Shown here one piece after another: positions 31,874-54,768 of a stretch of DNA of 64,000 bases. The notes below the pieces were generated by a model. The model searched no databases. It saw nothing but the letters and a program-made list of their open reading frames with translations, and had not been told where the DNA came from. The number at the start of each line of letters is the position of its first letter. Within the stretch, counting starts at the first letter, position 1. This DNA comes from a bacterium (GTDB lineage Bacteria > UBP4 > UBA4092 > JAOAEQ01). Where the stretch lies: the NCBI GenBank assembly GCA_026416715.1, contig JAOAEQ010000005.1, positions 1,190 to 65,189 of the forward strand, written 5' to 3'. The translations under genes were made by a program, and so were the position numbers.

Positions 31874-34639
31874 TCATTGAAAATCTATCCAACCCAAATC
31901 AATCGCTTCTCCAAACGTACCCTCCCCATCTCGATAGAAACCAAAAATTACTTTATAAGAAAGTGGTTCTGCAATAATATCGTTATGAATAATAACATAC
32001 TTCCCTACTGGCCAATGAGTGGTAACTGGATAAGGATAAAAATCCCAATTCTGCCCTTTCATCTGCCTATTAGATTCTGGCAATAATCCCACATCTTCTT
32101 CTTTTACTCTGCCGTGAATATAAACCAACCAATCCTTTTCTAACGGTTGATTTACTTTAAACAAGAAATACAGTCGATATTTTTTAGGTTCTAATTTTTT
32201 TAAATACACGTCAATAAAAGTTATTGCTGGATGGATAACTTTTTCTTTTCCACTCTGATGTTTAATACATAATGTTTCGAAGCTAGATGCTATTTCCCTG
32301 TATAGTTCGGGGATAATATTTTCGTAAAAAGCATAGGTCTGTAAAAATTCACCTATTTCAAAAATATTTTTACTGATTGATAACTGTTTCCACCTTTTAT
32401 ACAGTAAACCATCAAGATTATCCGTTGCAAAATCAATCCACCCTAATGGAATCGGTTTCCCGAAGGTTTTTCCTCCTTTATAAAAGCCGATAACTATATT
32501 ATATGGAATTGGTTCTGCTGAAATCACTCTCGATACAATGATGCTTTCATTTTTCCGCCAAGTTGATGTAGGTGGATCTGGCCAAAAATCCCAATTTTGT
32601 CCTTTCCACGATTGTACTTTTTCTGGTAACCTTGAAACATCTTCTTCTGCCACTTTACCGTGAACATATATTGCCCAATCGGTATCCATAAGTTCTTCCG
32701 TTTTAAATAATAAATATAGTTTATATTGTTTTGGATCAATCTTTTTATAATAATATCCCAAAAAGGATACCGCTGAATTCACTGCGAATCCCTGATGTTT
32801 AGTATATTCGGATATTATAGCCCTATATTTTTTATCTATTTCTTGAAATAGTTCCGGAAACGCTCTCTGATTAGATTGATATAATGAACGAAATTCATAG
32901 ATTTCAAATGGATTATTACTTGCTAAGATACGTTGCTGAGTTTTATCGACCTCATTTTTCGAAATCGAATACAGATACCAACTATACCCGTCTATTGGTT
33001 GTGCACCGGCATCGATACTCTGGTACGGCGTTTTTTTACCCTGCAATAATGCAGCAAGTTTACCACTCCAAGTTAAACATGGATATTCCTCGATTCTCGT
33101 AAACGTTGTTTCGAGGGTTAGTCCGAAAAGATTCGGTTCTCGAGAAACATAATAAATCTTTTTAACTCCAATATAATTACTAGGCCAATCTATTAAAACT
33201 GGATTATTGCGTTTATAGTAATACGGCAAAAATTCGTTAAAATAAAGCATGATTTTCTGTTCATATTCTTCTACTTGTTTAACTACCACTACTGCACCAG
33301 TAGAAAGTTTCTGGTCTAATTCAGTTAGCAATCGCTTTTCAATAGTTCTTGCATTATATTGCACAAGAAATTGATAAAGGAAATTGTGATAATTAACCAC
33401 GAGAAAGAAAAATAAAAACAAAACGACACCTCCAACTATGACCATGCCGAATCTTCTATTATTTTTAGCATGAGCCCAGATGGGTATAGTAGAAAAAGCT
33501 AATATTATTGCCAGCAATGGTACCACCGGATACCAATATCGTAATGCTTGCTCCCACGAGGTACAAAGAATGCAATATAATCCTATAAACTCAATAATAA
33601 GTATTAGGAAAAAAGTATTCGATTTCGCAATCGTTTGCGTTTTTCCATAAATTCGTCCCCAAATATATATTCCTTTTCGCAGATATCCCAGCCGCACCAA
33701 TCCTAATAATAGAAAGGCAATACTGAGAATAATCTGGGTATCAAGCAATAAGATACTTCGAACCAACCACCATCCGTTACTTACCAAAAGTTTTAAAGTT
33801 ATCGTTGGGACACCGTATCCACCTCCTTGAAAGGCTAGTTTGACTCGGAAAAAAGTGTATAGCAATACTAAAATCAACGGTAGCAGGCGGAATAAATATT
33901 TTTTCGAACTATGGTTTGATTCTAAGATGATGAAAATTAATAAAAATATAAACAGTAAAATGATATTTATCTCTTTCACAATTGATAAGCCAAAATAGCT
34001 AATGTAAATGAGAAAAAGATTCAACCGCGATGTAGAACTAAATTCGCCATTGGACTGGACAATGAGTATCGCTATTGCATAGTTAATGATGGCTAAAAAT
34101 AAACCGGTATGTAATTCCACCGGAGCTAGTCTTGCTTCGGGGTTATTGGGAAAGAAAAAGAATATGAAACTAAATGTTAGAACCGGAATATTGAATGATT
34201 TAATTAGCCTAATGAAACAGCGATTGACATTATCTTTTCCCTGGTGTAATGATTGTTGCTCGTGATTGGTTTGTATGAATAAAGAAAGACATTTAATCCA
34301 GAAATAAAACGAAATAAGTTTTACTACCCAACGAAATGCATGATGTAAAACCGGATTTGGTCCAAACAAAAACCAGACAAAAAAGTTATAAATATAGAGA
34401 AACGGACGATATCGACCGGAACCCAAATTGATAAATGTATTGTTAACCCAAGCAGCGAATTCACTGGCATTTTCGGCCAACTTAACCACTTGCCAGTCAA
34501 TATAATCGTCAATAAGTCCAAACGGCGTTTTCAGTGAATAATATATTGCAGGAAGAAGGAGAACAAAAATAATTAGGTAGATTAACCAATTTAAGAAGTG
34601 CGTTTTCATACTCTTTCGATAATTTGAACTTTTGACCAT
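31874..34639 (-). CDS. Large polytopic membrane protein with tandemly duplicated C-terminal extracytoplasmic domain
   Basis: 921 aa; N-terminal about 420 aa with many TM helices; two about 160 aa repeats (FEIYEF...GWIDFATD and FEIGEF...GWIDFQ) sharing KGQNWDF and GWIDF motifs. Confidence 0.6.
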   Translation of the reverse strand: MVKSSNYRKSMKTHFLNWLIYLIIFVLLLPAIYYSLKTPFGLIDDYIDWQVVKLAENASEFAAWVNNTFINLGSGRYRPFLYIYNFFVWFLFGPNPVLHHAFRWVVKLISFYFWIKCLSLFIQTNHEQQSLHQGKDNVNRCFIRLIKSFNIPVLTFSFIFFFFPNNPEARLAPVELHTGLFLAIINYAIAILIVQSNGEFSSTSRLNLFLIYISYFGLSIVKEINIILLFIFLLIFIILESNHSSKKYLFRLLPLILVLLYTFFRVKLAFQGGGYGVPTITLKLLVSNGWWLVRSILLLDTQIILSIAFLLLGLVRLGYLRKGIYIWGRIYGKTQTIAKSNTFFLILIIEFIGLYCILCTSWEQALRYWYPVVPLLAIILAFSTIPIWAHAKNNRRFGMVIVGGVVLFLFFFLVVNYHNFLYQFLVQYNARTIEKRLLTELDQKLSTGAVVVVKQVEEYEQKIMLYFNEFLPYYYKRNNPVLIDWPSNYIGVKKIYYVSREPNLFGLTLETTFTRIEEYPCLTWSGKLAALLQGKKTPYQSIDAGAQPIDGYSWYLYSISKNEVDKTQQRILASNNPFEIYEFRSLYQSNQRAFPELFQEIDKKYRAIISEYTKHQGFAVNSAVSFLGYYYKKIDPKQYKLYLLFKTEELMDTDWAIYVHGKVAEEDVSRLPEKVQSWKGQNWDFWPDPPTSTWRKNESIIVSRVISAEPIPYNIVIGFYKGGKTFGKPIPLGWIDFATDNLDGLLYKRWKQLSISKNIFEIGEFLQTYAFYENIIPELYREIASSFETLCIKHQSGKEKVIHPAITFIDVYLKKLEPKKYRLYFLFKVNQPLEKDWLVYIHGRVKEEDVGLLPESNRQMKGQNWDFYPYPVTTHWPVGKYVIIHNDIIAEPLSYKVIFGFYRDGEGTFGEAIDLGWIDFQ

Positions 34640-34668
34640 TTAAGTTTAATATATTCTGAACCTAAATT

Positions 34669-35364
34669 TTATTTTTTCCGCGCACAAACTGCAATGGTGA
34701 CCATCCATCGTGCTAATCTCTTATCTAACTTCTTATCCAACCATCTTAATATGCCATTCAACCAAGGAATAACAGATGGGAATACATGAATGCCTTTGTA
34801 TTCAAGTATTTCTAAATTAAGATTCTCTAGAAAAATCCGAAATGCTTTATAATAATGGAGCCAATTTTCGTATCCTTTATGCCTTCTTACTCCAATTACA
34901 TTGGCTAAAACAACCGCAAAATACCAGAATGATTTATTGGGAACAGTGATACAAATAATCCCATTTTTTTAAGACACGAACCAGTTCCCGAGTAGCTTGT
35001 AGCGGGTTGGAAGTATGTTCGATAACATCAGAAGAAATAACATATCCAAATGCATTTTCCTTAAAAGGCATCGCGAGAATTGAACCAACCACACCGTGAG
35101 CCATTGAATTTTTTTCTTTTGTTATCTTAACGAGTCGTTCACCAATATCAATTGCAATTACTTTTCCGGATCTATCTATTATCGCTTTCGTAAACCACCC
35201 GGTACCGCAACCGGCATCGAGAATAAGTTTATTCTCTAATATTTGCGTACCTAAAAATCAGTAAAAATAACCTCAATTCTTCTCTGGGTATCATATCGGT
35301 TGCTTAGTGAATCAAATTTAATAGCTATTTCATTATAAAATTTCTCTTTATCATTACTTTTCAC
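34669..35364 (-). pseudogene. Class I SAM-dependent methyltransferase interrupted by two frameshifts in homopolymer runs
   Basis: No ORF of 60 aa or more in the track; manual minus-strand translation gives three consecutive frames with methyltransferase motifs (LILDAGCGTGWF, VIAIDI, RVLKK then GIICITVPN); frame breaks coincide with T7 (34964-34970) and A5 (35252-35256) on the plus strand; no in-frame ATG. Confidence 0.5.
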
Positions 35365-36277
35365 AATTTTTTTCTTTAATAATATATTGTGGTCTGCGTT
35401 TCGATTCAATAAATAGTTTCCCTAAATACTCACCAATTATTCCTAAGATGAGAAGTTGTATACTCCCGATAAACAAGACACTAACAATAAGTGACGCCCA
35501 ACCAGGAACAGTTTTATCAGTAAATATTGTTATACCTACCGCATATCCTCCATAAAGAATGCATAAAAATGCTAATATTAATCCTAAAAAGGTTGCTAAA
35601 TGCAATGGCCTAGTACTAAATGAAGTAATTCCGGTTATCGCAAGAAGAATCATATTTTTAAAGGAATATTTGGTCTTCCCGGAATATCTTTTTTGAGGAG
35701 TATATTCTAATGCATATTGGCGGAAACCAACCCAAGAAACTAACCCTCGAAGGAAAATAAAGGTCTCATTCAGTTCTCGTAATATATCAATCACCTTTCT
35801 ATCTAATAATCGGAAATCTGCTGTTCCCGGAGTTATTTCAATTTCAGATATTTTATTCAGTAGTTTATAGAATAACCACGACGTTTTTCTCTTTAAAAAT
35901 GAAGCATCAGGGTATTCTTTCCGGACAGTATACACGATATCGTATCCTTCTTGCCATTTTTGAATCATCGCATCAACTAATTCTGGAGGATGTTGTAAAT
36001 CTGCATCAAGAGTGATTAAACAGTCTCCTGTCGAATAATCTAGCCCGGCTTTTAATGCTTTTTGTTGGCCAAAATTTCGCGAAAACGCAAGATATTTTAT
36101 CTTAGCTCCGTTTTCTACAAGTTCTTTAATTCGTTCTAACGTTGCATCCGTACTGCCGTCATCAACAAAAATAATTTCGTAATCCGAATACTTGTTTAAG
36201 ACCTCGGTTAGTTTCTTTACAAGAATCGGAATATTTTGTTCTTCATTATAACAGGGGATTACTACAGATATTTTCAT
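35354..36277 (-). CDS. GT2 polyprenyl-phosphate sugar synthase (GtrB/ArnC-like)
   Basis: VVIPCYNEE...IFVDDGSTD...LDADLQHPP GT2 motifs and C-terminal TM helices. Confidence 0.8.
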   Translation of the reverse strand: MKISVVIPCYNEEQNIPILVKKLTEVLNKYSDYEIIFVDDGSTDATLERIKELVENGAKIKYLAFSRNFGQQKALKAGLDYSTGDCLITLDADLQHPPELVDAMIQKWQEGYDIVYTVRKEYPDASFLKRKTSWLFYKLLNKISEIEITPGTADFRLLDRKVIDILRELNETFIFLRGLVSWVGFRQYALEYTPQKRYSGKTKYSFKNMILLAITGITSFSTRPLHLATFLGLILAFLCILYGGYAVGITIFTDKTVPGWASLIVSVLFIGSIQLLILGIIGEYLGKLFIESKRRPQYIIKEKNCEK

Positions 36278-36292
36278 GGTATCGTTTGGGTA

Positions 36293-37366
36293 TTAGTATA
36301 ATTGAATATCATCAATAAATATTTCGCAATTAACTCCGAGTGTATTGATTCCGATAACTTCCATAACCATATTTTTAGTACTCCATTGGTTTACTGGATT
36401 TAATGCGGTCGCAACTGCCTGTTGATAAAGATCATTTGCTTCAATTTTCGTCCATACTTTTGGTTGCAAACGGATAACAGCAGAAATTCCACCAGCTTCG
36501 GGTCCATATTTTGCTTGTGGTTCGGTTTTTTCATATCGAAAACTAACAACCAATTGCACCACTGATTCTTTGTTTGCATAAACGAACATTCTAACTCCAA
36601 CAGGATGGGTAAACGGCAGAAATACGACCTTCCCCCATAAATCTGGATTTTGTTCGTTATACTCAATCGAGAACAATTCGGATTTTTGACCCCGATATGA
36701 AAGAGTTGAACTTAATGTATGTGTTTTTATTACAGCAGTATTATTTTTTACCCAACGGTCAAAAACTGGTACACTTGTTCGCTCAAAATTTTCTACAGTT
36801 ACAAAAACATCGTGACCATTCCACAGGATATTTTTCCATGGTTTTAAAAAACTTTGATTAGCCATTTGTTTTAGTGTTGCCAAAGAAGCGATCGGATCGC
36901 ATGAGAGCATAGCTCCTAAACTATATGCATCTTCCGCTTCAACCCATTTCTTTTCAACAACATATACAGAAGCGATTGACCAACAGATAGTCTGCATTTC
37001 TTCACGGAAGCTTACCCAGTCAACATGAGTCGGTCGAATCTGCTGAAATCTATAAAACATATCGAGTGTTCGGGTATATTTTTTCTGCAAATAGTATAAT
37101 TTTCCTAAATAAAAATAAGCTTCTCGATCCTCTGGATTTATCTGAATAGCTTTTTCAAAGCTATAAATCGCAGGCAATATTTGTCCATTCTTAAATAACT
37201 CTTTTCCTCGAATAACCGCTACTTTGGGATCGGATAAAGCTATTTGTCGCATATATATTGAGCCCCAAAAAACTATTATGAGAAATCCAATAAGCAAAAA
37301 TAGCCAAATGATCAAAATTCCATTAAGGTTTAGTTTCTTCATATTGTTATTATTCGAAATAATCAT
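36293..37366 (-). CDS. Signal-anchored TPR protein with C-terminal domain shared with the C25-like peptidase at 39770-43228
   Basis: N-terminal hydrophobic segment, TPR-like repeats (REAYFYLGKLYYLQKKY), C-terminal about 170 aa (SYRGQKSEL...GINTLGVNCEIFIDDIQLY) homologous to the C-terminus of the 1152 aa protein; 4-bp overlap with the upstream gene. Confidence 0.55.
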   Translation of the reverse strand: MIISNNNNMKKLNLNGILIIWLFLLIGFLIIVFWGSIYMRQIALSDPKVAVIRGKELFKNGQILPAIYSFEKAIQINPEDREAYFYLGKLYYLQKKYTRTLDMFYRFQQIRPTHVDWVSFREEMQTICWSIASVYVVEKKWVEAEDAYSLGAMLSCDPIASLATLKQMANQSFLKPWKNILWNGHDVFVTVENFERTSVPVFDRWVKNNTAVIKTHTLSSTLSYRGQKSELFSIEYNEQNPDLWGKVVFLPFTHPVGVRMFVYANKESVVQLVVSFRYEKTEPQAKYGPEAGGISAVIRLQPKVWTKIEANDLYQQAVATALNPVNQWSTKNMVMEVIGINTLGVNCEIFIDDIQLY

Positions 37367-39519
37367 TCAGGTCGAAAATCTTCATTTCGAGTTAAAATAA
37401 CCGCATCAAATGTATGCCATACTCTCATATCTTTTGCAGAAACAGCTAAAATATTCTCGCCTTTATTCAATAATAAACTTCCACCAGTGAACCACCCAAT
37501 CTCTTCAGGAACCCAGTCAGGTTTAATAACAGTTTCTTCCCCATGATTGGTAGAAATAAAATATTCTCCGGCTTTGCGTATTCTTAGCCAAACATAATAT
37601 TTTCCTGTAATCGGTATATTAATGACAAATTGATGTTTTTTGTGCGAATATTCATTACATAATTCATCTTTCGGATTCCATTTAACCGCTTCAGCAGGAA
37701 AATAACTCCCTGAACTATCTACCAACCATCCCGAACCACTCGTTGCGCGCAGAACAATTGAATCGTTACTATAGATTTCCTGAACAGGTTGCAGTGGTTT
37801 TAACCATATTTGGATATCAAGCTCATTCATTAATTTCTTTGCATGAATATACGTTTCTCTTTTCGTCAGCGAGATATCGTCTATCGATTCGACAAACCGT
37901 TGAATTTTGCTCGAGGCAAAAACAATACTGGTAACCAATGAATAATATCCTTGACTCGTGACTTGAATTTTTCTGCCCGGATTAGTCTCAAAAGAAAATT
38001 TCCCGGAATTATCACTGGTGATCGTATCATAGATTATACCGGTATTGAGCAAACCTGTTCCTGGAGAAACTAATTTAACCACTGCTGGAATCGGGTTCCC
38101 GTGGACGTCGGTTACAACCCCAGTGACTTTGACTGAAGTAATAATATCAACCGTTTTTTCTTGTTTTGGCAAAAAATAAATTGGATTTGCTATCGCTACT
38201 CCAGAAGAAGAATCCAGTTGTACTAAATACCAAGCTTTTTCAGTTTCGTTAATTAAATATTCATACTGAAATTCTTTTTTTCGTTCCGGTATATACACCG
38301 TATTAATAACCATCCCATTTCGAATAATTTTTAGTTTTTTCAATTCATCTCCATACCCGGCAGTATAACATAGAATACGCATAGAATGTTGTTGTGCATC
38401 AGGTTCCAGAATGGTACCGGGTAAAAAGGTATCAATTGAAAATAGAAGCAGTGGTCCTGTAGTAGCAAAATTTTTCCCCTGTTTCAAATTCTGCATAATC
38501 TGATTATAATCAAACTTCTCGCTATAGGTATAGGTTCTACCCCATCCAATGTCTCCTCCTGTTTCTGTATCTAATCCTGTATCGCTATTCATCACTCCCG
38601 CAACTCGATATCCAGCGTTCAAAATGGCAAACCAGGTCTGAAGGTCTCTTTCATTCTCGAGAATCTCAATTGCATCAACTGCACCGCATACTACTGCTAA
38701 TGGTAATTCTCGCGCTAAATTGCTTAACACTGCATTTTTTCTATTATCTAACCACCAACGAGTAGGATGTGCAGCAATAAATACCGGATTATGCTTATTT
38801 GTTCGTTCCTCCTCACTTTGCTCAATCAAATGCCATCCTTCTTGTCCTATAAGATTTGGGAGATTTAACCGAAGATAATGGATTTTGGGAATTTTATCGT
38901 TATATCCTTTCATTTCGACGCCGGGTCGGCATATAAAATCTGTATCACTATTTTCATTACAGATAGTAAATATTTGGTCGTTGGTTAAATTTTTCACGGA
39001 ATCATAGAGTTGAACAAATGTGACATAATCTAATCCAACCGCTCGAGCTAACATAGCACCATACTGTATATTAGTAGCAATCCTTGCATTTTCTCGTCTA
39101 GCAACATGAATATGCGAATCACCACAATACCATTTGATTTGCGGTAAATTAACCAGGCGTTTTAATCTAACCAGAACATTCCTTCTCTGTGGTGATAATC
39201 TAACGATAACCTGTTGCGGCTGATATTCAAAGCCACGGCTAACGAAAATTTTCACTGTTCCTAATGGAAGAATGAAGTCGCCCTGCCCGTCGATAAAAAC
39301 CGCGTGATTTTGATAGGGACTTTTCGCGTAGGTTTTATTTTCACACTCAATGACTAATTTTGCGGGCATTAATTGGCCAGTTTCATGGTCAACAACTCGA
39401 ATTCGTAACTCCGCAGTTTTTACTTGGGATAATTGATGAACTGATGTACATCCTATCGTAACTACCCATATAAATATCAACCCTACATAAAAGAATTGCT
39501 TATAGGAATATTTCTCCAT
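37363..39519 (-). CDS. Putative lipoprotein: PHP/CehA-McbA-like metallohydrolase with Ig-like beta-sandwich domain
   Basis: Signal peptide with possible lipobox (VVTIGCTS); CGDSHIHV resembles the N-terminal H-x-H metal motif of PHP-type hydrolases; mid-protein CarboxypepD_reg-like segment (VTGVVTDVHGNPIPAVVKL). Confidence 0.45.
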   Translation of the reverse strand: MEKYSYKQFFYVGLIFIWVVTIGCTSVHQLSQVKTAELRIRVVDHETGQLMPAKLVIECENKTYAKSPYQNHAVFIDGQGDFILPLGTVKIFVSRGFEYQPQQVIVRLSPQRRNVLVRLKRLVNLPQIKWYCGDSHIHVARRENARIATNIQYGAMLARAVGLDYVTFVQLYDSVKNLTNDQIFTICNENSDTDFICRPGVEMKGYNDKIPKIHYLRLNLPNLIGQEGWHLIEQSEEERTNKHNPVFIAAHPTRWWLDNRKNAVLSNLARELPLAVVCGAVDAIEILENERDLQTWFAILNAGYRVAGVMNSDTGLDTETGGDIGWGRTYTYSEKFDYNQIMQNLKQGKNFATTGPLLLFSIDTFLPGTILEPDAQQHSMRILCYTAGYGDELKKLKIIRNGMVINTVYIPERKKEFQYEYLINETEKAWYLVQLDSSSGVAIANPIYFLPKQEKTVDIITSVKVTGVVTDVHGNPIPAVVKLVSPGTGLLNTGIIYDTITSDNSGKFSFETNPGRKIQVTSQGYYSLVTSIVFASSKIQRFVESIDDISLTKRETYIHAKKLMNELDIQIWLKPLQPVQEIYSNDSIVLRATSGSGWLVDSSGSYFPAEAVKWNPKDELCNEYSHKKHQFVINIPITGKYYVWLRIRKAGEYFISTNHGEETVIKPDWVPEEIGWFTGGSLLLNKGENILAVSAKDMRVWHTFDAVILTRNEDFRPE

Positions 39520-39769
39520 AACTATTATTCCTAAATTAAACGCCGTACCCTCGAATGTAAAGTCAATTTGCTTTGATATAATGTGTTACATTAGCCATTC
39601 CACGTTTTTTCGGATTTCACTCCATTGAACAATCTTGGCTGCGCGAAACAAAAAAAAGACACTCGATACTTTACTATTTTTATTAAACCAAATCTCTTCA
39701 AAATTTGAGAATTCTGTAGTACCAAATGTCCTTTATAATGACGCAAATTTTGGATAGAATGCATACATT

Positions 39770-42700
39770 CTATTGGTTATTCTTTAAATATACTTTTAAT
39801 TTATTTGGTGGAAAAAACAATTCAATATCATCTACATATAATTGAACATTTCTCCCTCGAGTATTAATACCAAGATATACAATATGCATATTATCAATAT
39901 CCCAGCAATGAACATCATCAACTGATCTATAGGAAACAAATAAATCTGGATACACTCGAATATCACCACTAATATCCTTTTGTGATAATGCACGTTTTTT
40001 AGCAATTTGATAGAGGTCATTTATTTTTAATTCAATCCAATTGGAACTGATTGAATATGCTTGAGAACAAAACGCTTCGTTATGTTTTCCATTATAGGTA
40101 ACCGTAGCATTTAATTCTACCTTACTTTCGGTTGTTCCTCGTACAAAAAGACGAACTCCTATCGGACCGCGTAACGGTATGACAACCTCCTTACCCCAAT
40201 AATCTACCCAGCCTGGTATAGGATAGACTAAGTCAATCAGTTCACTTTTTTTACCCCGATGAGCATAGGTGGTTGAAAGGTAATGACCTATTATTTTTGA
40301 TTTATCACTCCAATGCCAATTTTTTAACTGCACCGCAGTAGCTGTTTCAAAAGTTTCGATTGGAACAGAGAGTTTCGCCAGGCGTTGAATCATTTTTAAA
40401 TCTCGGCATCCGTATTGAAATGCCTCGCTATATTTTAAGAGTGCATTTAGCATATCTTTTTGTTGATAAAATCTATCGCCGTCTTCCATGATTTGTTTTG
40501 CTTTTCTATCATTATCTATAGAAACTGATACAATAATATCCCGAATATCCTTATTGTTCATTGGCGTTACAGACCAAAGTAATCTTGGCAATAACGCTGG
40601 TAAACCAACAGTTTGCCCAACATTTATGGTATCTACAGTGGAAACTATTGTATATCCTATTGCATCCCACTTTGTTTTCTCATTCCATAAATAGCAATAA
40701 GCGATGAGTGTATCTTGTACGAAATGAGGTGGAATGGTCACTTTTGTGGTGAACTTTGCCTGATGATTTATGGTAATATTTTTTTGGATAACTAATTTCC
40801 CTTTTTCAGTCTTGATGATAACACTCCCTTTTGCAGGTCGTTTTCTATCCAGTGTTCCTGTAATTCGAATTTGAGGTTTAGATTTTATGGTCCGCGTTCC
40901 CTCTAATTGAACTATATCGTGAGGGAATGAAAGTTGTGTACCCGGATCACCTAACAAGACATAGGTAGCAGAAATATCAGGTAGTTTAATTTCTTGTTTC
41001 GCATTAATAAAAATATCACCAAGACGTCGAACATTCTTTTTAAACATCTGCGTGAACATTGCCCGGTCAAATGCATCGTTGGAAGAAACATAGCTTCGCC
41101 AAGTAGCGCTAATCACCGCTATCGCACCAGCGTTCGGTGTTTTTAGTAACACTTCACCAAGGCTATCATTATCAATATTATCAAAAACGCCGGTATAACA
41201 AGTTAAAGCGATTACTAATGGATATTTTCCATAGTTTTTCAATTGCAATATATTTTTTACTCCAAAAAAATCACGGTTATCTGGAACGACTTCTACTCCA
41301 TGTCGCTCTAAATCCATGCGACCGCTTTCCCAAACATATCCGCCGCCATGCCCAGTAAAATGAAGTATGATTCGTCCTTCGTTAATATTTTCAACAATAT
41401 CTTCCGTTCGATATTTATAATCCGGTGAACCACTTGATGGATATCTGCGATATACTTCATAATATGATGGCACATACGATTTCGCTAATTCTTCACTAAT
41501 CCCTTCAAACATCGGTTCTGGACTCGCTAAAAAGAATATCTTTTGACGCCATTGACCAAAGTTCGGCTTCTGTTCGTATTGAATAATTTTATTTACTACA
41601 TTAGTTACTTCTTCAATCGAATGCGCAGAAATCCTACCAATTGCCATTTCCGGTTTTGTTTCATCTTCGCCAACCGCGACAAACCAGTTATCTGACGCTG
41701 CTGCACCCATATATGTTGCCCAATAATACGTAGGAATATATAACCGAGCATGCGCTAGATTCATATTTCCGCGTAAATCAACACTAACATCACCGACGAG
41801 TAAAACATATCGCGGTCGTGGTTGCCAGTTGTAATAGGCATACTTGAGAAAAGACTTAATTGCTTTCGCATCAACTAATCCATAGTTGAAAGTATCATAA
41901 ACTTCTGATGTTTTGACACATTTTACCGTTAATCCGGTCTTCTTACGCCATGCTAACAACGGTTGAATTGCAGGATAAAAATCATCGTGCGTTATAACCA
42001 GATATTCCGCACCACTTGTATCTTGTGTTAAATCGTAATACATTATTTTTTCGATTTTAACCGGAGATTTTTTCTGCCTATCAGTTAGAGCAATGTAATG
42101 AACCGAACTCGATTCGTTATATAGTGTAAATTGTGCTTTAAAAGAACTTGAAGAATCAAGTGAACTTATTGTAATTGCAGGTATTATTACTTTCTTGTGA
42201 GTAATATCATATACATTAATATGTGGATTCGTAAACCCTCGAATTTCATGTTGGCTGGTAACTATATCATAGTTCATATTTATTGCGCTAAATACTAATT
42301 CATCGTTGGTTGCAATAAATGATTTCCAATAACTTAATTGAAATTGAACCATATAGATAACATCAATATCAGATGCTTGCCCAGTTGGATCACCAGATTT
42401 TCCAGGTAACGATATTTGCAATACATTATTCCCTGCCTTAAAAAAATTCATCGGAACCGTATTACATTGATAAGTATGTTTTGCCCGACCATACCACCGA
42501 GTTTCACCAACTCGATTTCCGTTTAATCCAATAACAACATAATGGTTTCCATACGAGACTCCTTGAAATACTATAGATAGTGAACAGAATAATGTTGGAG
42601 CTAAAATGGGATGGGTGATAGTAAACTGAAATGGATAATCATTCACCGGCGCAGCTATTTCCCGCCAATACCATAGATTTTGCTGCTCTTCTGTTTGTCC

Positions 42701-43228
42701 AGCAGCGGTTCGTGAATAAATAAAGGTTTCCTTACGAAATTGAGTATCTCTAAACATTGTTTTAGTCGAGAAAGAGATACTGGTTGCAAGCAAATGAGTT
42801 TGTTCTATATTCCAGCGTAATCCGGTTGATTTTCCCCAGGTTAAATAATAGACATTGGTATCAGAATATTCATCAGGTTCACCATCCGAATTACGATTTT
42901 TCTCGCCATAAAATTCAATATAATCATTGGTTCCATCTAAGGTATAGCGGGTTGTAAACTCAGCGCTACACAATATTGGGATTTCTCTCCCTCGATTCCA
43001 GAGCTGAATACTGTGAGGAGTAACCTGACTTAAATTACAACCGGCATCTGCTAAATCTCGATATCCGATTCGATAGATTCCATCTTCATCAATATAAATT
43101 TTACATAATTCGGTCGGACCCGACCCTACTCCATACAAACCCCAAGCTACTGAACACAGTAATAGCATTATTCCTATACCTACTAGTATTATTTTATTAG
43201 TTAAGCGCTCTCTTCTATATTGTTTCAT
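39770..43228 (-). CDS. Secreted C25-family (gingipain-like) cysteine peptidase homolog with C-terminal accessory domains
   Basis: 1152 aa; signal peptide; central region with candidate catalytic His (ILHFTGHGGG) and Cys (PLVIALTCYTG) in C25-like spacing; conserved YVLLVGD block; C-terminal about 180 aa shared with the TPR protein. Confidence 0.6.
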   Translation of the reverse strand: MKQYRRERLTNKIILVGIGIMLLLCSVAWGLYGVGSGPTELCKIYIDEDGIYRIGYRDLADAGCNLSQVTPHSIQLWNRGREIPILCSAEFTTRYTLDGTNDYIEFYGEKNRNSDGEPDEYSDTNVYYLTWGKSTGLRWNIEQTHLLATSISFSTKTMFRDTQFRKETFIYSRTAAGQTEEQQNLWYWREIAAPVNDYPFQFTITHPILAPTLFCSLSIVFQGVSYGNHYVVIGLNGNRVGETRWYGRAKHTYQCNTVPMNFFKAGNNVLQISLPGKSGDPTGQASDIDVIYMVQFQLSYWKSFIATNDELVFSAINMNYDIVTSQHEIRGFTNPHINVYDITHKKVIIPAITISSLDSSSSFKAQFTLYNESSSVHYIALTDRQKKSPVKIEKIMYYDLTQDTSGAEYLVITHDDFYPAIQPLLAWRKKTGLTVKCVKTSEVYDTFNYGLVDAKAIKSFLKYAYYNWQPRPRYVLLVGDVSVDLRGNMNLAHARLYIPTYYWATYMGAAASDNWFVAVGEDETKPEMAIGRISAHSIEEVTNVVNKIIQYEQKPNFGQWRQKIFFLASPEPMFEGISEELAKSYVPSYYEVYRRYPSSGSPDYKYRTEDIVENINEGRIILHFTGHGGGYVWESGRMDLERHGVEVVPDNRDFFGVKNILQLKNYGKYPLVIALTCYTGVFDNIDNDSLGEVLLKTPNAGAIAVISATWRSYVSSNDAFDRAMFTQMFKKNVRRLGDIFINAKQEIKLPDISATYVLLGDPGTQLSFPHDIVQLEGTRTIKSKPQIRITGTLDRKRPAKGSVIIKTEKGKLVIQKNITINHQAKFTTKVTIPPHFVQDTLIAYCYLWNEKTKWDAIGYTIVSTVDTINVGQTVGLPALLPRLLWSVTPMNNKDIRDIIVSVSIDNDRKAKQIMEDGDRFYQQKDMLNALLKYSEAFQYGCRDLKMIQRLAKLSVPIETFETATAVQLKNWHWSDKSKIIGHYLSTTYAHRGKKSELIDLVYPIPGWVDYWGKEVVIPLRGPIGVRLFVRGTTESKVELNATVTYNGKHNEAFCSQAYSISSNWIELKINDLYQIAKKRALSQKDISGDIRVYPDLFVSYRSVDDVHCWDIDNMHIVYLGINTRGRNVQLYVDDIELFFPPNKLKVYLKNNQ

Positions 43229-43240
43229 AAAATCGTCTTT

Positions 43241-45886
43241 CTACTCCTCTGTTTTTGGATCTGCCTCATTATAATGTGGTGTTACTGGAGCTACCAGTTC
43301 CCGAGCCGCAGCAAATCGTTTGCTATATTCATTCCATAAATTTATTGTTATGACTAACGGAATTGTTCGGTAAGCACCCGAGATAGCAAATTGTGCATTC
43401 CATTTCATTTGATTATTCGGTACCAAAAAGGAAGATATTAAATCACCTGATTGTGTCCGAAGCTGAATGATTCCTCGTGTAAACTCATTTGCCCACATTC
43501 CACTCCCATCGGTTACCGAAATTATTCCTAGGTCCGATGTGGTTGTTTCGATTCGTTCGATTTTACATGGTATCGGCTCTGGAATTGAGATTAGTAATCC
43601 AGGGTCACCTAATAAAGTATATAAATTATTTATCTCTTCGTTATTAACTTCTCGTTTAGCATCTAAAAATGCATCTCCGAGTCTTATTGGAGTAGTTGAT
43701 TGAAATATTCGACGTAAAAATGCTTTATCAAACATTTCAAAACTAGCTTGTGAAACTCGATAGGTACCTCCAACACAGGCAATTGCACCAGCTTTATCGA
43801 CTTTTAATAATGCTTCCCCTATTCCATCTGACCACATGGAATCAAATTCGTTTGCATAACAAGTCATCAAAATAACTAACGGATATTTCTTTTTATTTTG
43901 TAACTTGGTTATATGTCTTACACCGAAAAATCCGCGATCTTTATATCCGACAGTTTCGGGTTGTCCTTCTTCACCCGGTCGGCCAACATCCAAATGAAAC
44001 GGACTCGCATGACCAGTAAAATGAACCAACCAAGCTCCTTCATTAAACCATTCTATCACATTTTGCGGTGTAATAACTACCGATTCAATGGTTTCCGGCG
44101 TTGCATAGCGCGGTAAAGAATTCATCTGATTGGGTACAACATGTTTCATCAACTCAAGATTGATTTGGTCAGTCCATTCCCGTGGAGTTGCTAGAAATAA
44201 TACTGATTGACGCCAGGGACCAAATTCTGCTTGCAATTCATATTCCAAAATTTTATTGATTACCGCTTCTGTTTCTGATACCGAATGCGATGGGATTCGA
44301 CCTATTGCGAGTTCCGGTATCGAATCTTCTCCTTCTAAACAAACATACCAGTTATCACTAGCAGCATATCCCGCTGACGATGCAAAATAATGCATCGGGA
44401 TATATGTTCGCCCCTCAGCTAAATTTAAGCTTCCTTTCATATCCCAACTCGCATCCCCAACTAAGAGAACATATTTCAATCGGGGGGATTTCCAGTGGTG
44501 ATAAGCATAGAATAAAAAATCACGAATCGCTTGCGGATTGATTATTCCGAAATTAAATTCATTATAGATATCTTCAATATTAACGAGTTCAGCCAATAAC
44601 CCTTGTTGTTTTCGCAATTCGACTAAAGGCTTCAAAATTTCATTAAATTCTGATGGAGAAATAATGATATACTCTGCTGATATTTCAGGATTCCGCCATT
44701 TACCAATCCATTGTTTCTCTATTCGAAACGGGGTTTTAATCCGATTTTCAGTGCACGCGAAATAAGATTGCGGTAAATCGGCTTTTTCAGGTTCAAAATA
44801 GGCAAAATAAGTCGTTTGTTTTAACAAACCCAATTTGGGTATTACTATCGGTTCGTATTTAGTAGTATTAGAGAGATTATATATACAAATATTCGGGTAG
44901 GTAAAATTTTTTATTCGTAATCCGGAAGGAAAAGTATGCTGCAAATCTTTATCTGAGAGTTGAAATTGAATATCATTATTGGTTGCGACTAGCTGTTGCC
45001 AACAATCTATTTCAAACCAAGAAAGAAAAACTACATCGATTTCCGACGCTAAATGTTTCGGGTCGCCCTCTTTACCTGGCAACGATATTTCTAACGAATT
45101 ACTTCCGACCTTAAAATATCCTATTGGGACAGAATCATTGGTATAAAGGAACTCGGTTGCTCCATCCCATCGTATTTCACCGAGAGGATATCCATTTAAA
45201 GAAATCACGACATAGTGGTCTGGATTTTGCGGTAACCGCGATACACCAAAAAATTTTATACGAACGCTACACTGCTTTGTAGTATCGCTACTTAACGATG
45301 GAACCGTGAACAGTAATTTTTTCTTCGTTGGTGCAGCAAGTTCCATCCAAAACCATCGTTCAGCAGCATCAATATTTACCCAACGGGAATGGATGAATTT
45401 TTCTTCCCGATGAATCTTATTGAGATAATCTATTTCAGATTGTGCTTTGATAATGCCATTCCATTTTGACTGCGGTTTTCCAATTACCCTATACCACTGC
45501 GGAGATAAATTGGGATTTGTCCAATGTAAAAAGTAAACGTTCGTATCCGTATATTCATCATAGTAAGCTGTTGAACCACGATTGAATGTTCCATAGAATT
45601 CGAGATAATCATTTTTATTCCATTGACTTGATTTTGTGGTTCCCGCGGAAAAATATACTGGAATACATTTTCCTCTGTTAGTTAATCGAATTTTGGTTGG
45701 ATTGATTTCTAACGGATTAATTCCTGCATCAAGTAGATCGAAATAGGTTATTCGATACAGTCCATCTTCATCAACGAAAATTTTTACTACGTTTTCTAAA
45801 TTTGGCTGTTTCGCTGGTAGTCCTAAAATGAGACTAACTATAGATAAAAAAAACGACACAACAATTATACTGCGGTTTAATTTCAT
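43241..45886 (-). CDS. Secreted C25-family (gingipain-like) cysteine peptidase homolog, paralog of the upstream gene
   Basis: 881 aa; signal peptide; colinear with the 1152 aa paralog through the N-terminal domain and catalytic region (YVLLVGD, LVHFTGHASP, PLVILMTCYAN) but with a different, shorter C-terminus. Confidence 0.6.
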   Translation of the reverse strand: MKLNRSIIVVSFFLSIVSLILGLPAKQPNLENVVKIFVDEDGLYRITYFDLLDAGINPLEINPTKIRLTNRGKCIPVYFSAGTTKSSQWNKNDYLEFYGTFNRGSTAYYDEYTDTNVYFLHWTNPNLSPQWYRVIGKPQSKWNGIIKAQSEIDYLNKIHREEKFIHSRWVNIDAAERWFWMELAAPTKKKLLFTVPSLSSDTTKQCSVRIKFFGVSRLPQNPDHYVVISLNGYPLGEIRWDGATEFLYTNDSVPIGYFKVGSNSLEISLPGKEGDPKHLASEIDVVFLSWFEIDCWQQLVATNNDIQFQLSDKDLQHTFPSGLRIKNFTYPNICIYNLSNTTKYEPIVIPKLGLLKQTTYFAYFEPEKADLPQSYFACTENRIKTPFRIEKQWIGKWRNPEISAEYIIISPSEFNEILKPLVELRKQQGLLAELVNIEDIYNEFNFGIINPQAIRDFLFYAYHHWKSPRLKYVLLVGDASWDMKGSLNLAEGRTYIPMHYFASSAGYAASDNWYVCLEGEDSIPELAIGRIPSHSVSETEAVINKILEYELQAEFGPWRQSVLFLATPREWTDQINLELMKHVVPNQMNSLPRYATPETIESVVITPQNVIEWFNEGAWLVHFTGHASPFHLDVGRPGEEGQPETVGYKDRGFFGVRHITKLQNKKKYPLVILMTCYANEFDSMWSDGIGEALLKVDKAGAIACVGGTYRVSQASFEMFDKAFLRRIFQSTTPIRLGDAFLDAKREVNNEEINNLYTLLGDPGLLISIPEPIPCKIERIETTTSDLGIISVTDGSGMWANEFTRGIIQLRTQSGDLISSFLVPNNQMKWNAQFAISGAYRTIPLVITINLWNEYSKRFAAARELVAPVTPHYNEADPKTEE

Positions 45887-48323: not shown

Positions 48324-49448
48324 ATGAAACTCCTCATTCGTAGTATTTTGCGCGAATTTATTTCTATAACTTTTCTCGTATTATTTCTTTTCACTGCGGT
48401 TTTTATAATCTTTGCTACCAAACGAATTTTCGATGTAATTGATTTAATTTTCAATCGCGACGTCGGTCTTTTAACGATACTCAAAATTTTCGGGTTACTT
48501 CTTCCGTATGTTACAAGTTTAACCCTACCGATATCATTATTAGTTGCTGGATTAGTGGTGTTCGGGAGACTAGTTCTAGATCGGGAATGGTTAGCATTTC
48601 AAACTAGTGGAATTAGTCCTGGTTCAGTGATTGTGCCGCTACTCATTTTGGGGATAATCCTCAGCGGGGGACTAATGTATTCGGCAGAGTACGTCGTCCC
48701 AAAATGTTATCGACAGGCACGGCATCTAATATATAACGCAGTAAATAATATTACGGTTACGCTTAAAGAGAACACCTTTAATCCAATAGGAAATAATGTC
48801 GTCCTGTACTATCGAACGAAAACCGAAGCTGACGGAATAATGCACAATATTATTGTTCTTTATTCAGAAGAGAAAAAGTTACGCCGCTTATTCCTAGCGC
48901 CCCGCGGCAAAGTATCAGTTGATCCAAAGCTAGGATTGATTCGATTAACGTTAGAACATGGTATGTATCATGAAACCGTACCAACTGATTCCACAGTCTA
49001 TTATATCGGTCAGTTTACAAAATATGAGCAAAACATCGCTTTTACCGAGTTACTTGCTCAGACGGAAAAACTACAGCTTGGTCCGAAAGAAATGCAACGG
49101 GTTGAATTAATAACCGAGATTAATAACCGAAAAGCAAAGAATCTCCCTACAGAACGACTGGAATACGAACTCGCACAACGGCCAGCAAAATCGTTCGGCG
49201 CGTTTATCTTCGTTCTACTTGGAATCCCGCTTGGGATATTCTGGCCACGTTTTGGTAAATCGTTAGGAATGGCAATTGAACTTGGCTTTGCATTATGTAT
49301 ACCTTATTTCTATTATGCAATAATGACATTGGGGGAAGATTTGGCTCGCGGGAAGATTATCCCATTTTGGTTCGGAGCATGGCTACCGAATATGACAATG
49401 GGTATAATTGGGTTAATTCTTTTATTCCAGAGCTGTCGACAGAAATGA
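48324..49448 (+). CDS. LptF/LptG-family (YjgP/YjgQ) lipopolysaccharide export permease
   Basis: 374 aa; N-terminal MKLLIRSILREFISITFLVLFLFTAVF typical of the LptF/G family; TM helices flank a periplasmic domain; stop overlaps lptD start. Confidence 0.75.
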   Translation: MKLLIRSILREFISITFLVLFLFTAVFIIFATKRIFDVIDLIFNRDVGLLTILKIFGLLLPYVTSLTLPISLLVAGLVVFGRLVLDREWLAFQTSGISPGSVIVPLLILGIILSGGLMYSAEYVVPKCYRQARHLIYNAVNNITVTLKENTFNPIGNNVVLYYRTKTEADGIMHNIIVLYSEEKKLRRLFLAPRGKVSVDPKLGLIRLTLEHGMYHETVPTDSTVYYIGQFTKYEQNIAFTELLAQTEKLQLGPKEMQRVELITEINNRKAKNLPTERLEYELAQRPAKSFGAFIFVLLGIPLGIFWPRFGKSLGMAIELGFALCIPYFYYAIMTLGEDLARGKIIPFWFGAWLPNMTMGIIGLILLFQSCRQK

Positions 49449-51565
49449 TATATTACAAAATAAAATTTTGGTATTTAATTATTATCTACCTGAATATTAT
49501 CATAGTATTTTCTCCCGTGCATGCGGAAGAAATATTTCGTAGCGTAGATACTGCGATTCCGATAGTTATCAAAGCGGAATATGTTAAATATACCGAAGAT
49601 AACGAAACGGTTTATGCACGAGGTAAAGTTCGAGTTACCTATAGTTCAGATACACTTCGTGCGGATGAACTTTGGTTTTCCTTCCCAACCAAACTCTTGC
49701 ATGCAAAAGGTAACGTTAAACTTATCCGTGGTACCTATGGAAAAATCACTGCAATCCGATTAGAATGTGAAGAACTAACCTATGAACTTGATTCGTATCG
49801 CGGGATAGCAAAAAAAACCTATACCAATCTACCGCCATGGTTCATCTATTCTCCGGAAATTGAGCAGTTGAATCGGTTTGAACAACATGTTCGGGAAGCA
49901 AGTTTTACAACCTGTGATCGACCGGAACCGCATTATCATTTAACCGCTAAAGAAATTATTATTTATCCCGATAAATATATCATGGCAAAAAATGTTTGGT
50001 TCTATGTAAAGAATGTGCCGATTCTCTATTATCCGAGCTATCGCAAATCGCTAACCAAACATACAGCTAATTTTAGCATCACGCCTGGACATAACAGTCG
50101 GCATGGTATCTTTATTAAGACCGCATATAATCTTTCATTAAGCGACCGTTTTCTAACCCGATGGCATCTCGATTATTTTTCAAGACAAGGATTAGGTTAT
50201 GGGCTTGATGCAGAATATACGGATACCACCAATCATAACGTGAGACTAGCATCGTACTATGTTGATGAACGCGAAACAGACGAAGACCGGACTCGGTTTT
50301 ATCTGCGGCATCGAAGCAAGTTAACTGATTCCATTTCAGTTCTCTCGTATGCAGATTACGCTAGCGACCCGGAGTTCGATGAAGATTATATCTGGAAATA
50401 TATTCGCGGAAAACTTGACTCTCGCGAAATATATACTTCATTCCAAAACCTACAGGATACCTATGTCCTTCGCCTTACTGTTCGGCGATATGATGAAGCG
50501 ATTGCGGATGAATCCGGCATCAAACATTTCGAGTTATCCGAACAGCAAACGCCGCAATTGGAGTTACATACCAAATATCAAAAACTTGGTCGATTCAATT
50601 ATTACTGGTTATGGAAATCAAGCGTTGACCAAAACGAGTATCCCGGTACGGATTTAGTCAATAACAGCGATAACTATTCCGCTATGAATATCAGCGCTGG
50701 ACCGGAAATAATCCATAGTCGGCAGCTATTCAAGAATCTGATTTACACCTCAACATATGGACTCGAAAACAGTTGGAGTTCGAAAACCTCAAATAATGCA
50801 ATTTATGACGAATATCAGGTTCGACTCTACCACGACAAAAACTTACGATATCGGATTAGCGATAATCTGAAAACTGATATCTATTGGCGGACAACGAAAC
50901 GGTTAGATGACCCTGAAGACCCAGAATATGATAGAACCGAATCGAGTATTCTCGGCTCGCGAGTCACCTATCGGGTTCCGAAAACTAAACTGCGATTGAA
51001 CTGGTTAACCGCTTATAGTCTAAAAGATAAAACGGATTCAAACCCGAACGACATCCGGTATTCAACTCGGGTAGATGCTTCGTGGCAACCCAGAAATAAT
51101 TTAATTCTCTATGCAAGTGGTGAATTATTAAATCAATATCTCGATGATTCCGTTGGCAACCGAGATACCATTACCGGTCAAACTTGGTTCGCTTCTGCAA
51201 CTTACTATCCAAAAGATTGGTTTTGGGTTTCGCTCGGAGCCAAGTATCAGAATAATAGTTATCCGAACGAAAATTTTGGGCAGTCAACAGAGTCTTTTGC
51301 ATTTTATCCTGGGTTAGGAACTAATCTTGGCTCAAAATGGAAACTGCAACTCGGCGCAGGGTATGAAATCGGAAAATCTGAAGGGCATGACCAGACCTTT
51401 GATACCCTCTATAAACAAGTTATTTTAATTCGCGATTTACATTGCTGGGAAGCGTATCTCCGATACCAAGAATGGGAAGACGGAAGTTCGTGGTGGTTTG
51501 CGCTTAACCTGAAAGCTTATCCTATAAAATCCATCTCATTCGACCAAAAAGCCGTGCTATTTTAG
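49445..51565 (+). CDS. lptD: LPS-assembly outer-membrane protein LptD-like (OstA family)
   Basis: Start at ATG overlapping the upstream stop (ATGA at 49445-49448); signal peptide; OstA-like N-domain (ASFTTCD, HYHLTAKEI) followed by long beta-rich region ending in an aromatic residue. Confidence 0.7.
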   Translation: MIYYKIKFWYLIIIYLNIIIVFSPVHAEEIFRSVDTAIPIVIKAEYVKYTEDNETVYARGKVRVTYSSDTLRADELWFSFPTKLLHAKGNVKLIRGTYGKITAIRLECEELTYELDSYRGIAKKTYTNLPPWFIYSPEIEQLNRFEQHVREASFTTCDRPEPHYHLTAKEIIIYPDKYIMAKNVWFYVKNVPILYYPSYRKSLTKHTANFSITPGHNSRHGIFIKTAYNLSLSDRFLTRWHLDYFSRQGLGYGLDAEYTDTTNHNVRLASYYVDERETDEDRTRFYLRHRSKLTDSISVLSYADYASDPEFDEDYIWKYIRGKLDSREIYTSFQNLQDTYVLRLTVRRYDEAIADESGIKHFELSEQQTPQLELHTKYQKLGRFNYYWLWKSSVDQNEYPGTDLVNNSDNYSAMNISAGPEIIHSRQLFKNLIYTSTYGLENSWSSKTSNNAIYDEYQVRLYHDKNLRYRISDNLKTDIYWRTTKRLDDPEDPEYDRTESSILGSRVTYRVPKTKLRLNWLTAYSLKDKTDSNPNDIRYSTRVDASWQPRNNLILYASGELLNQYLDDSVGNRDTITGQTWFASATYYPKDWFWVSLGAKYQNNSYPNENFGQSTESFAFYPGLGTNLGSKWKLQLGAGYEIGKSEGHDQTFDTLYKQVILIRDLHCWEAYLRYQEWEDGSSWWFALNLKAYPIKSISFDQKAVLF

Positions 51566-53397: not shown

Positions 53398-54768
53398 ATG
53401 AGCTTTTTTATTGATTCTCACGTCCATTTGGATGACCCAAAATATACCTCTGATCGGGAGGCAGTGATTCATCGAGCGTTCGATACCGGCGTTAACTGGT
53501 TAATCCAAATCGGAACGGATATTCCGAGCGATGAATTTGCAATTCAATTAGCTGAACAATATCCTACCATTTACGCTACCGTGAGTATACACCCTCATGA
53601 TGCTAACGCATTTGATGAATCGAGTTATATAAAACTTCGCACGTTAGCTCAGCATCCGAAAGTGGTTGCTATCGGTGAAACCGGTTTAGATTATCATTAC
53701 GACTTTTCGCCACGTGAAATACAGCGAACGGTTTTTCGTCGGTTAATGGAACTCGCTGCGGAACTGAACAAACCGGTAGTCATTCATAGTCGGGCAGCAA
53801 ATCGTGATACATTACACATTCTAACCGAATATCAAGGAAAAGTTACGGGGGTTATGCATTGTTTTTCGGGAGATGAATTGATGATGAAAGAATGTATTCA
53901 ACTCGGGTATTATATTTCTATTGCTGGTCCGGTAACCTACCCAAACTCAGCTCGATTACAGGAACTGGTTAAAAAAATCCCAATCCCGCGTCTTTCCATT
54001 GAAACCGATTCGCCTTATCTCGCTCCACAATCGTATCGGGGTAAACGAAATGAACCAGCGTACGTAATTGACATTGCAAAAAAAATCGCTGAATTGCGTG
54101 GACTAACCGCAAGCGATATAGGCAGGATTGCAGCAATTAACGCAAAACTCTTATTCGGAATATCGGTTCCTGATGAACCGAAAATTGCTTATCCGATTCG
54201 TAATTCGTTATATCTGAATATAACCAACCGGTGTACTAACCAATGTTATTTTTGTGTTCGGTTTTATACTGATTATGTTATGGGACATAATCTCCGCTTA
54301 AAAATCGAACCGACAACGGAGGAAATTATCGCTGCAATCGGTGATCCGAAACAATACGAAGAGGTTGTTTTCTGTGGATATGGTGAACCTACCCTGCGAT
54401 TAGATGTCATGAAAACAGTTGCTCGATGGTTAAAAGAACAAGGGGTTAAAGTTCGATTGGATACTAATGGGCACGGTAATCTGATCCATCAACGGAATAT
54501 CGTTCCGGAACTGGTTGGGTTAATTGATTCGGTGAGTATTAGTCTCGATGCAGAAAATCAGGAACAGTATATGAAAATATGTAAGCCACAATTCGGTGAA
54601 CCTACATTTCAAGCAGTCATTGATTTTATTAAAGAATGCAAAAAATTGTTGCCGGAAGTAAGCGTTACTGTTGTCGGCGTACCTGAGGTTAGTGAAATAA
54701 ACTGCAGAAAATTAGCGGATACTCTAGGGGTTAAATTCCGGTTCCGGGTTTACAATGAAGTAGGATAG
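53398..54768 (+). CDS. TatD-family hydrolase fused to a TatD-associated radical SAM domain
   Basis: N-terminal TatD motifs (FIDSHVHLDD, GETGLDYH, HCFSG); C-terminal about 180 aa with CxxxCxxC (NRCTNQCYFC) and GYGEPTL radical-SAM-like motifs. Confidence 0.8.
   Translation: MSFFIDSHVHLDDPKYTSDREAVIHRAFDTGVNWLIQIGTDIPSDEFAIQLAEQYPTIYATVSIHPHDANAFDESSYIKLRTLAQHPKVVAIGETGLDYHYDFSPREIQRTVFRRLMELAAELNKPVVIHSRAANRDTLHILTEYQGKVTGVMHCFSGDELMMKECIQLGYYISIAGPVTYPNSARLQELVKKIPIPRLSIETDSPYLAPQSYRGKRNEPAYVIDIAKKIAELRGLTASDIGRIAAINAKLLFGISVPDEPKIAYPIRNSLYLNITNRCTNQCYFCVRFYTDYVMGHNLRLKIEPTTEEIIAAIGDPKQYEEVVFCGYGEPTLRLDVMKTVARWLKEQGVKVRLDTNGHGNLIHQRNIVPELVGLIDSVSISLDAENQEQYMKICKPQFGEPTFQAVIDFIKECKKLLPEVSVTVVGVPEVSEINCRKLADTLGVKFRFRVYNEVG

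Follow-up and report, generated by a model that had tools for sequence, protein, structure and literature searches.

Two otherwise unrelated proteins encoded on the minus strand of a 64-kb stretch of bacterial DNA (contig JAOAEQ010000005.1; the whole stretch is called the window below) end in homologous copies of the same autonomous domain of about 175 residues. One host is a tetratricopeptide repeat (TPR) protein of 357 amino acids (aa; 36293-37366) and the other is a 1152-aa C25-family cysteine peptidase (39770-43228); both open reading frames (ORFs) were confirmed. Judged by sequence comparison, the domain represents a family that is real but rare and is in no family library. Its modelled fold is very probably a beta-jelly-roll of the type B carbohydrate-binding module (CBM) sort, the galactose-binding-like kind. 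From this model and from the gene context we lean, by a modest degree, towards the view that the shared domain is an extracytoplasmic glycan-binding module.

Copy 1 forms the C-terminus of the TPR protein (36296-36826, minus strand; aa ~181-357, ending in ...FIDDIQLY) and copy 2 that of the C25 protein (39815-40366, minus strand; aa 955-1138), where it is followed by a 14-aa tail reaching to position 39773. The initial annotation had described a colinear C-terminal similarity of about one-third identity between the two proteins; it had located both segments correctly, with limits slightly narrower than those found here, and every peptide string that it quoted is present in the translations. 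BLASTP aligned aa 189-357 of the TPR protein with aa 955-1138 of the C25 protein at 32% identity over 192 columns (E = 2e-23), in agreement with that description. With composition adjustment turned off, the true pair scored 89.7 bits, compared with a mean best score of 13.7 bits (standard deviation 4.1, maximum 24.6, n = 200) when the C25 segment was shuffled. Both window proteins were also recovered by a profile of 33 other family members from which the window copies and their close orthologues had been excluded (E = 2.7e-34 and 5.2e-31, scaled to 1.84e9 sequences). A resemblance due to chance or composition, with no real shared domain behind it, is thus excluded for practical purposes by the pairwise E-value, the shuffled scores and the independent profile together. 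The window holds exactly two copies, as found by tblastn with either copy and by a six-frame search with the family hidden Markov model (HMM). A third, cryptic copy, for example in the 718-aa or the 921-aa protein described below, was considered and rejected, the next six-frame HMM match in the window having an E-value of 0.6. Outside the domain the two hosts are essentially unrelated, as had been proposed. A possible upstream extension of the module into a TPR-like helical hairpin of the C25 proteins was colinear in one orthologue (P0003) at only 1.6 bits, which is not significant, and was not retained.

Standard annotation leaves the shared domain unclaimed. Pfam recognised only TPR (aa 53-115) and Peptidase_C25 (aa 409-765) in the two proteins, NCBIfam gave no match for the domain, and a PDB sequence search with a two-copy profile gave none at E <= 10; the earlier statement that this is not a named family therefore stands for these three resources. 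A literature search that combined Omnitrophota, polysaccharide and TPR yielded no description of the domain family. A word-indexed homologue search returned only the query when started from the two-sequence alignment, and the query plus one other protein when started from an alignment of 37 sequences. Further carriers, for which the initial annotation had proposed a search, were found by an exhaustive HMMER search of 1.84 billion cluster representatives, which yielded 51 proteins at E <= 1e-3, 28 of them at E <= 1e-10. About 45 of the 51 were judged real, and in these the domain is nearly always C-terminal. Two long repetitive proteins with many sub-threshold matches (P0024 and P0043) were treated as false matches.

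Most members are 330-410 aa long: a hydrophobic helix at the N-terminus leads into roughly 200 residues that are helical or TPR-like, and the domain comes last, at the very C-terminal end. Of the 36 members checked, nearly all have such a helix or a domain with multiple transmembrane (TM) segments. The window TPR protein follows this plan: its N-terminal part (36827-37366, minus strand) carries lysine residues, then an anchor helix at aa 16-34 (nt ~37265-37321; hydropathy peak 2.95) and TPRs at aa 53-115, which scored 37.6 bits with TPR_1 (cut-off 27.8), 34.3 with TPR_11 (26.8) and 30.6 with TPR_2 (27.0). Four members show no N-terminal hydrophobic segment (P0007, P0009, P0002 and P0047); at least two of these are shortened gene calls, P0007 among them, the longer cluster-mate of which (P0171) has the segment. 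Other architectures occur. Four proteins (P0029, P0030, P0044 and P0051) have 5-9 predicted TM segments, and in P0050 the domain is preceded by about eight or more hydrophobic segments; P0014 has some 300 residues inserted within the domain, which is thereby split; P0047 combines a signal peptide with a domain placed in the N-terminal half of the protein; and short ORFs of 123-174 aa consist of the domain alone, some of which may be gene fragments. P0019 is the continuation of a Wzy_C-like end, a weak match to the final 25 profile positions of that O-antigen ligase/polymerase domain; its gene lies at a contig edge (locus L011), behind an in-frame TAG and directly ahead of a PMT_2 gene. In that locus the Wzy_C-like frame (1-132) runs into P0019 across this single in-frame TAG (55-57), which could be a sequencing error, a sign of a pseudogene or a recoded stop. 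Occurrence on unrelated hosts (TPR, C25 peptidase and multi-TM proteins), together with a confident single-domain model, is what is expected of an independently folding module. By Pfam, neither window host is a carbohydrate-active enzyme, and a few members have weak Wzy_C-like or multi-hydrophobic continuations.

Conservation was examined in the alignment of 37 member sequences (A2), with residues numbered along a 179-aa segment. W127 and D174 are invariant, and F16, E17, H38, G48, E52, Y58, W66 and R81 are conserved in at least 90% of the sequences (His38 92%, Glu52 95%, Tyr58 92%, Arg81 97%). The consensus reads IWG..IYVTLEDFE ... H.I ... G..SE..D..Y ... DYW.K.V.IPL ... G.R.F.K ... GW.E..I.DL ... 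IDT.G ... FYIDDIELF, and within its D-Y-W motif Y is found in 73% and W in 95% of members.

The structure predicted from A2 has at least 12 strands and one helix, at high confidence (pLDDT 96, pTM 0.89); a model made from the two window copies alone was poor (pLDDT 55) and was not used. Foldseek placed CBM11 (6r31) first (E = 4.8e-6, TM-scores 0.59/0.61), followed by CBM22, a porphyran-binding CBM, CBM61, CBM16, CBM27 and CBM30. Jelly-rolls that do not bind glycans had lower structural scores (CIA30 10.1, Kgp gingipain adhesin 9.8, MAM 9.6). At the level of sequence, CBM11 was also the top match of the A2 profile among PDB sequences, colinear over 132 of 178 positions but below threshold (E = 0.39; 1v0a/2lro E = 0.39-0.44). 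The hhalign comparison with a CBM11 fragment gave 30% probability and paired Y..DYW with Y..GYW and FYIDDIEL with FVVDNIKL; the family D-Y-W thus aligns with G-Y53-W54 of CBM11, the Tyr53 of which we take to contact the ligand. Pfam CBM_11 matched 3 of the 37 members (best E = 0.011), none of them a window copy, and CBM_4_9 matched one (E = 6e-4).

Every locus surveyed is a polysaccharide cluster (12 of 12: the window, L001, L002, L004, L006, L008-L012 and the loci of P0010 and P0029). Two of the main-family loci belong to metagenome-assembled genomes of Candidatus Omnitrophota; locus scans with a narrower alignment found only two loci among genomes and two among metagenomes. In all seven main-type loci with a visible upstream side (L001, L002, L004, L008, L009, L012 and the P0010 locus), the gene directly upstream of the TPR-domain gene encodes a Wzz-like polysaccharide co-polymerase, and in L008 the Wzz stop codon touches the TPR-domain start. 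The Wzz-like proteins of L001 and L002 share 28% identity (E = 1e-36). Beyond the pair lie sugar-nucleotide enzymes, family 2 and family 4 glycosyltransferases (GT2 and GT4), Wzy, Wzx, a Poly_export protein, or NeuB and CMP-sugar genes.

Peptidase genes were observed beside several of these pairs. In L004 a papain-type Peptidase_C1 gene (1959-2780) adjoins the upstream side of the Wzz-like gene; in the P0010 locus, a metagenomic locus unrelated to L004, a Peptidase_C1 gene is also found on that side, with one gene between it and the Wzz-like gene; and in L002 a 2197-aa S8 subtilase with immunoglobulin (Ig) and LamG domains stands directly upstream of the pair. Peptidases near the Wzz/TPR-domain pair may be a recurring theme.

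In the C25 host, the body that carries copy 2 (40367-43228, minus strand) consists of a signal or anchor sequence, an N-terminal PorU-like region, the catalytic domain (aa 409-765) and beta-rich and helical linkers. It matches Pfam Peptidase_C25 at E = 4.8e-89, with catalytic residues His627 and Cys677. A tandem paralogue of 881 aa without the shared domain (43241-45886, minus strand) matches the same family (E = 2.1e-76) and has the equivalent His626 and Cys676. For both proteins the best NCBIfam model was the T9SS sortase PorU (NF033707; T9SS, type IX secretion system), over residues ~41-784, with scores (294.8 bits for the 1152-aa and 251.6 bits for the 881-aa protein) below the cut-off of 420. 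Among PDB sequences the 1152-aa protein was closest to PorU (6za2, E = 8.7e-15), followed by Kgp (1e-6) and RgpB (6.5e-4), and its GHGG (His627) and TC (Cys677) motifs align with the catalytic dyad of 6za2. By these matches both are probably functional, PorU-type cysteine peptidases of clan CD, though they are not filed as PorU. The C25-type copies of the shared domain form an orthologous group of their own (47-72% mutual identity, compared with 26-35% between TPR-type and C25-type copies), and the lineage-specific insertion in copy 2 (nt 39914-39985, minus strand; aa 1082-1105; 22-24 aa, or 22 alignment columns) is conserved together with the tail in three orthologues (P0052, P0003 and the C25 protein of L006). 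The domain was therefore duplicated onto the peptidase before these genomes arose. The gene order is also shared: epimerases, a C25 gene (~860 aa), the C25 gene with the domain (1153 aa), the TPR-domain gene and GtrB follow one another. L006 has this order with nothing between the last C25 gene and the TPR-domain gene, and the P0052 locus has it up to a 695-aa gene, after which the contig ends; the tandem C25 pair is conserved in at least these two related metagenomic loci. L005 shows the first C25 gene and then an incomplete downstream ORF at the contig end.

How might such a domain act? The initial annotation had suggested a sorting, anchoring or glycan-binding module. Of these, glycan binding gains support from the CBM-type fold and from the polysaccharide setting of all 12 loci, anchoring gains none, and sorting is not borne out, as discussed below. 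On the glycan-binding interpretation, the N-terminal anchor would place the TPR region and the jelly-roll outside the cytoplasm, and the domain would bind the cluster's own glycan, whether still growing or already finished as a surface polymer. In this way the TPR protein would hold the polymer beside the periplasmic assembly or modification machinery, which might be Wzz/Wzy or GtrB with GT-C enzymes; from the conserved gene pairing we infer a partnership with Wzz. The copy on the C25 peptidase would tether that enzyme to this polymer at the envelope, in a design that recalls the jelly-roll adhesin domains of gingipains. The continuations into membrane proteins of glycan assembly (P0019 and P0050) and the PMT_2 gene next in L011 were also counted in favour.

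Several observations weigh against glycan binding. The jelly-roll fold also serves protein-binding and catalytic roles. Membership in any existing CBM sequence family fails by Pfam, by the PDB profile search and by hhalign. The near-invariant His, Glu, Tyr and Arg exceed the conservation usual at CBM ligand sites, and in the window TPR copy the Tyr of the DYW motif is replaced by Leu. Finally, the Wzz/GNVR co-polymerase gene of the window (16578-17747, minus strand; Pfam Wzz and GNVR) is not adjacent to the TPR-domain gene but lies 19 kb from it.

The tight Wzz pairing also argues for a protein partner, and the jelly-roll might be an interaction or adhesin module that binds the Wzz-like co-polymerase, Wzy or a substrate of the C25 peptidase, in the manner of the MAM, ephrin-receptor, CIA30 and gingipain adhesin domains. 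We regard this as rather unlikely: the highest structural matches are all glycan binders, with protein-binding folds 3-5 Z units lower, the TPR part already offers a surface for protein binding, and the same domain is present on a peptidase in loci without an adjacent Wzz gene. The 92-97% conservation of His38, Glu52, Tyr58 and Arg81, polar residues of the lyase type, would suit instead a small jelly-roll enzyme, be it a polysaccharide lyase or hydrolase or an activity that trims chains. Many exopolysaccharide systems carry a periplasmic lyase or hydrolase, PL7-type lyases use Arg, His and Tyr, and the gene sits within polysaccharide clusters beside a chain-length regulator. However, no catalytic jelly-roll family was found among the top structural matches, and an enzymatic role seems improbable to us.

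The sorting function proposed earlier would make the domain a C-terminal sorting or attachment tag that is recognised, cleaved or used by the neighbouring PorU-like C25 enzymes. These have both catalytic residues intact, one of them bears the same C-terminal domain as its neighbour, and PorU itself bears the signal domain of its substrates. PorU is described as the T9SS sortase that attaches cargo to anionic lipopolysaccharide (A-LPS; PMC5445135; bioRxiv 10.1101/2024.12.20.629629), and the T9SS C-terminal signal is described as a compact 7-stranded (3+4) Ig-like beta-sandwich at the extreme C-terminus (PMC11285876). In size and fold this differs from the domain studied here, with its ~175 residues, at least 12 strands and one helix. 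Members already carry an N-terminal anchor, and a C25 gene is missing from most family loci, which makes the domain independent of that enzyme. No sorting-signal family (Por_Secre_tail or equivalent) was reported at E <= 1, whether Pfam was run on the 37 members or NCBIfam on the window proteins. Because of fold, size, anchors and the C25-free loci, the sorting-tag explanation is unsupported, and we hold it to be very improbable. A bolder arrangement is also a long shot: the tandem C25 proteins, the CBM-like domain and the TPR protein might make up a T9SS-independent system for attaching proteins to polysaccharide, in which surface proteins would be coupled by a C25 transpeptidase to the cluster polymer, presented as acceptor by the jelly-roll; such a system would parallel, in an Omnitrophota-type form, the A-LPS anchoring of Bacteroidota. 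In a weaker form, equally doubtful, Wzz-type co-polymerases would have in the TM-TPR-domain protein an obligatory partner, so far overlooked, which would read the chain as it grows.

The two window copies lie in a long minus-strand polysaccharide cluster, which spans ~6.4 to 48 kb. It starts with two GDP-mannose-dehydratase/epimerase-type enzymes, with another epimerase further down, and the section with the host genes holds the two C25 genes, a CehA/McbA metallohydrolase, the TPR-domain gene, a GT2 gene and a 921-aa multi-TM protein. Elsewhere in the cluster are a phosphodiesterase-like protein, a methyltransferase, a Wzx-type flippase, three GT4 genes, Wzy, an initiating sugar transferase, the Wzz/GNVR protein and a PMT_2 protein. 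No RNA families were found in 30-48.5 kb. The GT2 gene (35354-36277, minus strand), 16 bp downstream of the TPR-domain gene, encodes a GtrB/ArnC-type polyprenyl-phosphate glycosyltransferase, which matched PDB entry 5ekp (GtrB, sll0501) over its full length (E = 2e-85) and ArnC (E = 5e-47). A GtrB-type GT2 gene directly follows the TPR-domain gene also in L006 (67% identity) and L008 (33% identity). The metallohydrolase gene (37363-39519, minus strand), located between the genes of the two hosts, encodes a 718-aa PHP-type protein of the CehA/McbA family with a CarboxypepD_reg-like domain (NCBIfam NF038032, 106 bits, cut-off 80). Its position is taken by the 695-aa gene, with no recorded Pfam match, in the P0052 locus and by no gene in L006; because this position varies between orthologous loci, the metallohydrolase is not an obligatory partner.

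Several other features of the window were observed. The C-terminal part of the 921-aa multi-TM protein (31874-34639, minus strand) is a tandem pair of ~175-aa repeats (aa ~566-745 and 746-921; 41% identity, E = 5e-51), which bear no relation to the shared domain. Pfam, NCBIfam and the PDB sequences gave no match to these repeats or to the membrane part. The 715-bp gap between this gene and the GT2 gene (34640-35353) contains fragments of a class-I S-adenosylmethionine (SAM) methyltransferase spread over at least two frames (56-aa and 52-aa ORFs), either a pseudogene or an assembly frameshift. On the plus strand, a 756-aa protein (49295-51565) follows an LptF/G permease gene, the two listed ORFs overlapping by ~150 bp. 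Pfam assigns it no family and NCBIfam gives only a faint LptA/OstA-like signal (E = 0.0075); it may be a divergent LptD/OstA-type protein. A 456-aa ORF (53398-54768, plus strand) joins a complete TatD_DNase domain (aa 5-254) to a Radical_SAM domain (aa 273-440), and is either an unusual fusion or two genes merged by error.

Taken as a sequence family, the domain is new; its fold is very common and the functional kind suggested for it is a common one. What is less ordinary is the setting, which is polysaccharide assembly, not degradation, and the fusion to a PorU-like peptidase within a polysaccharide cluster. A domain family without annotation now has a name and a testable function. Where taxonomy is known, its members come from Candidatus Omnitrophota and related uncultured bacteria, and the strictly conserved pair of a Wzz-like gene and an anchor-TPR-jelly-roll gene appears in standard annotation only as a 'TPR protein' or 'hypothetical'. 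If glycan binding is true, the family would be a new CBM family in polysaccharide assembly and would give a handle on which polymer these clusters make. More speculatively, the PorU-like fusion hints at how such bacteria might fix enzymes to surface glycans.

Compared with known systems, the closest likeness in fold is to the type B CBMs (CBM11 of C. thermocellum Lic26A-Cel5E, 1v0a/6r31; CBM22, CBM4 and CBM44/30), from which the family differs in having no significant sequence membership, in its hosts, which are membrane-anchored TPR proteins and a C25 peptidase rather than glycoside hydrolases, and in the addition of one helix (model aa 135-143) and the conserved set H38/E52/Y58/R81. The haemagglutinin or cleaved-adhesin domains of gingipains (Kgp and RgpA) have a structural score below those of the CBMs; the present domain occurs as a single copy, not as an array, and none of the 37 members has a cleaved-adhesin Pfam match. 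The catalytic domain of the window C25 protein is likewise closer to PorU than to the gingipains. The PorU match includes the region N-terminal to the catalytic domain, and the proteins are of similar length (1152 versus 1156-1158 aa); unlike PorU, however, both C25 proteins score below the NCBIfam cut-off, their genes lie within a polysaccharide cluster, and the 64-kb window showed neither a T9SS C-terminal signal domain nor any further T9SS component. The TPR host can be likened to AlgK, PelB, BcsC and PgaA and to the TPR-bearing GT-C enzymes (TMTC/PMT-like), which provide the periplasmic TPRs of polysaccharide assembly and are encoded within the biosynthetic cluster. Those scaffolds serve synthase-dependent systems or share one polypeptide with a porin or a GT-C enzyme, whereas the protein described here is a short, single-pass anchored protein with a CBM-like end, paired with a Wzz-type co-polymerase of the Wzx/Wzy pathway.

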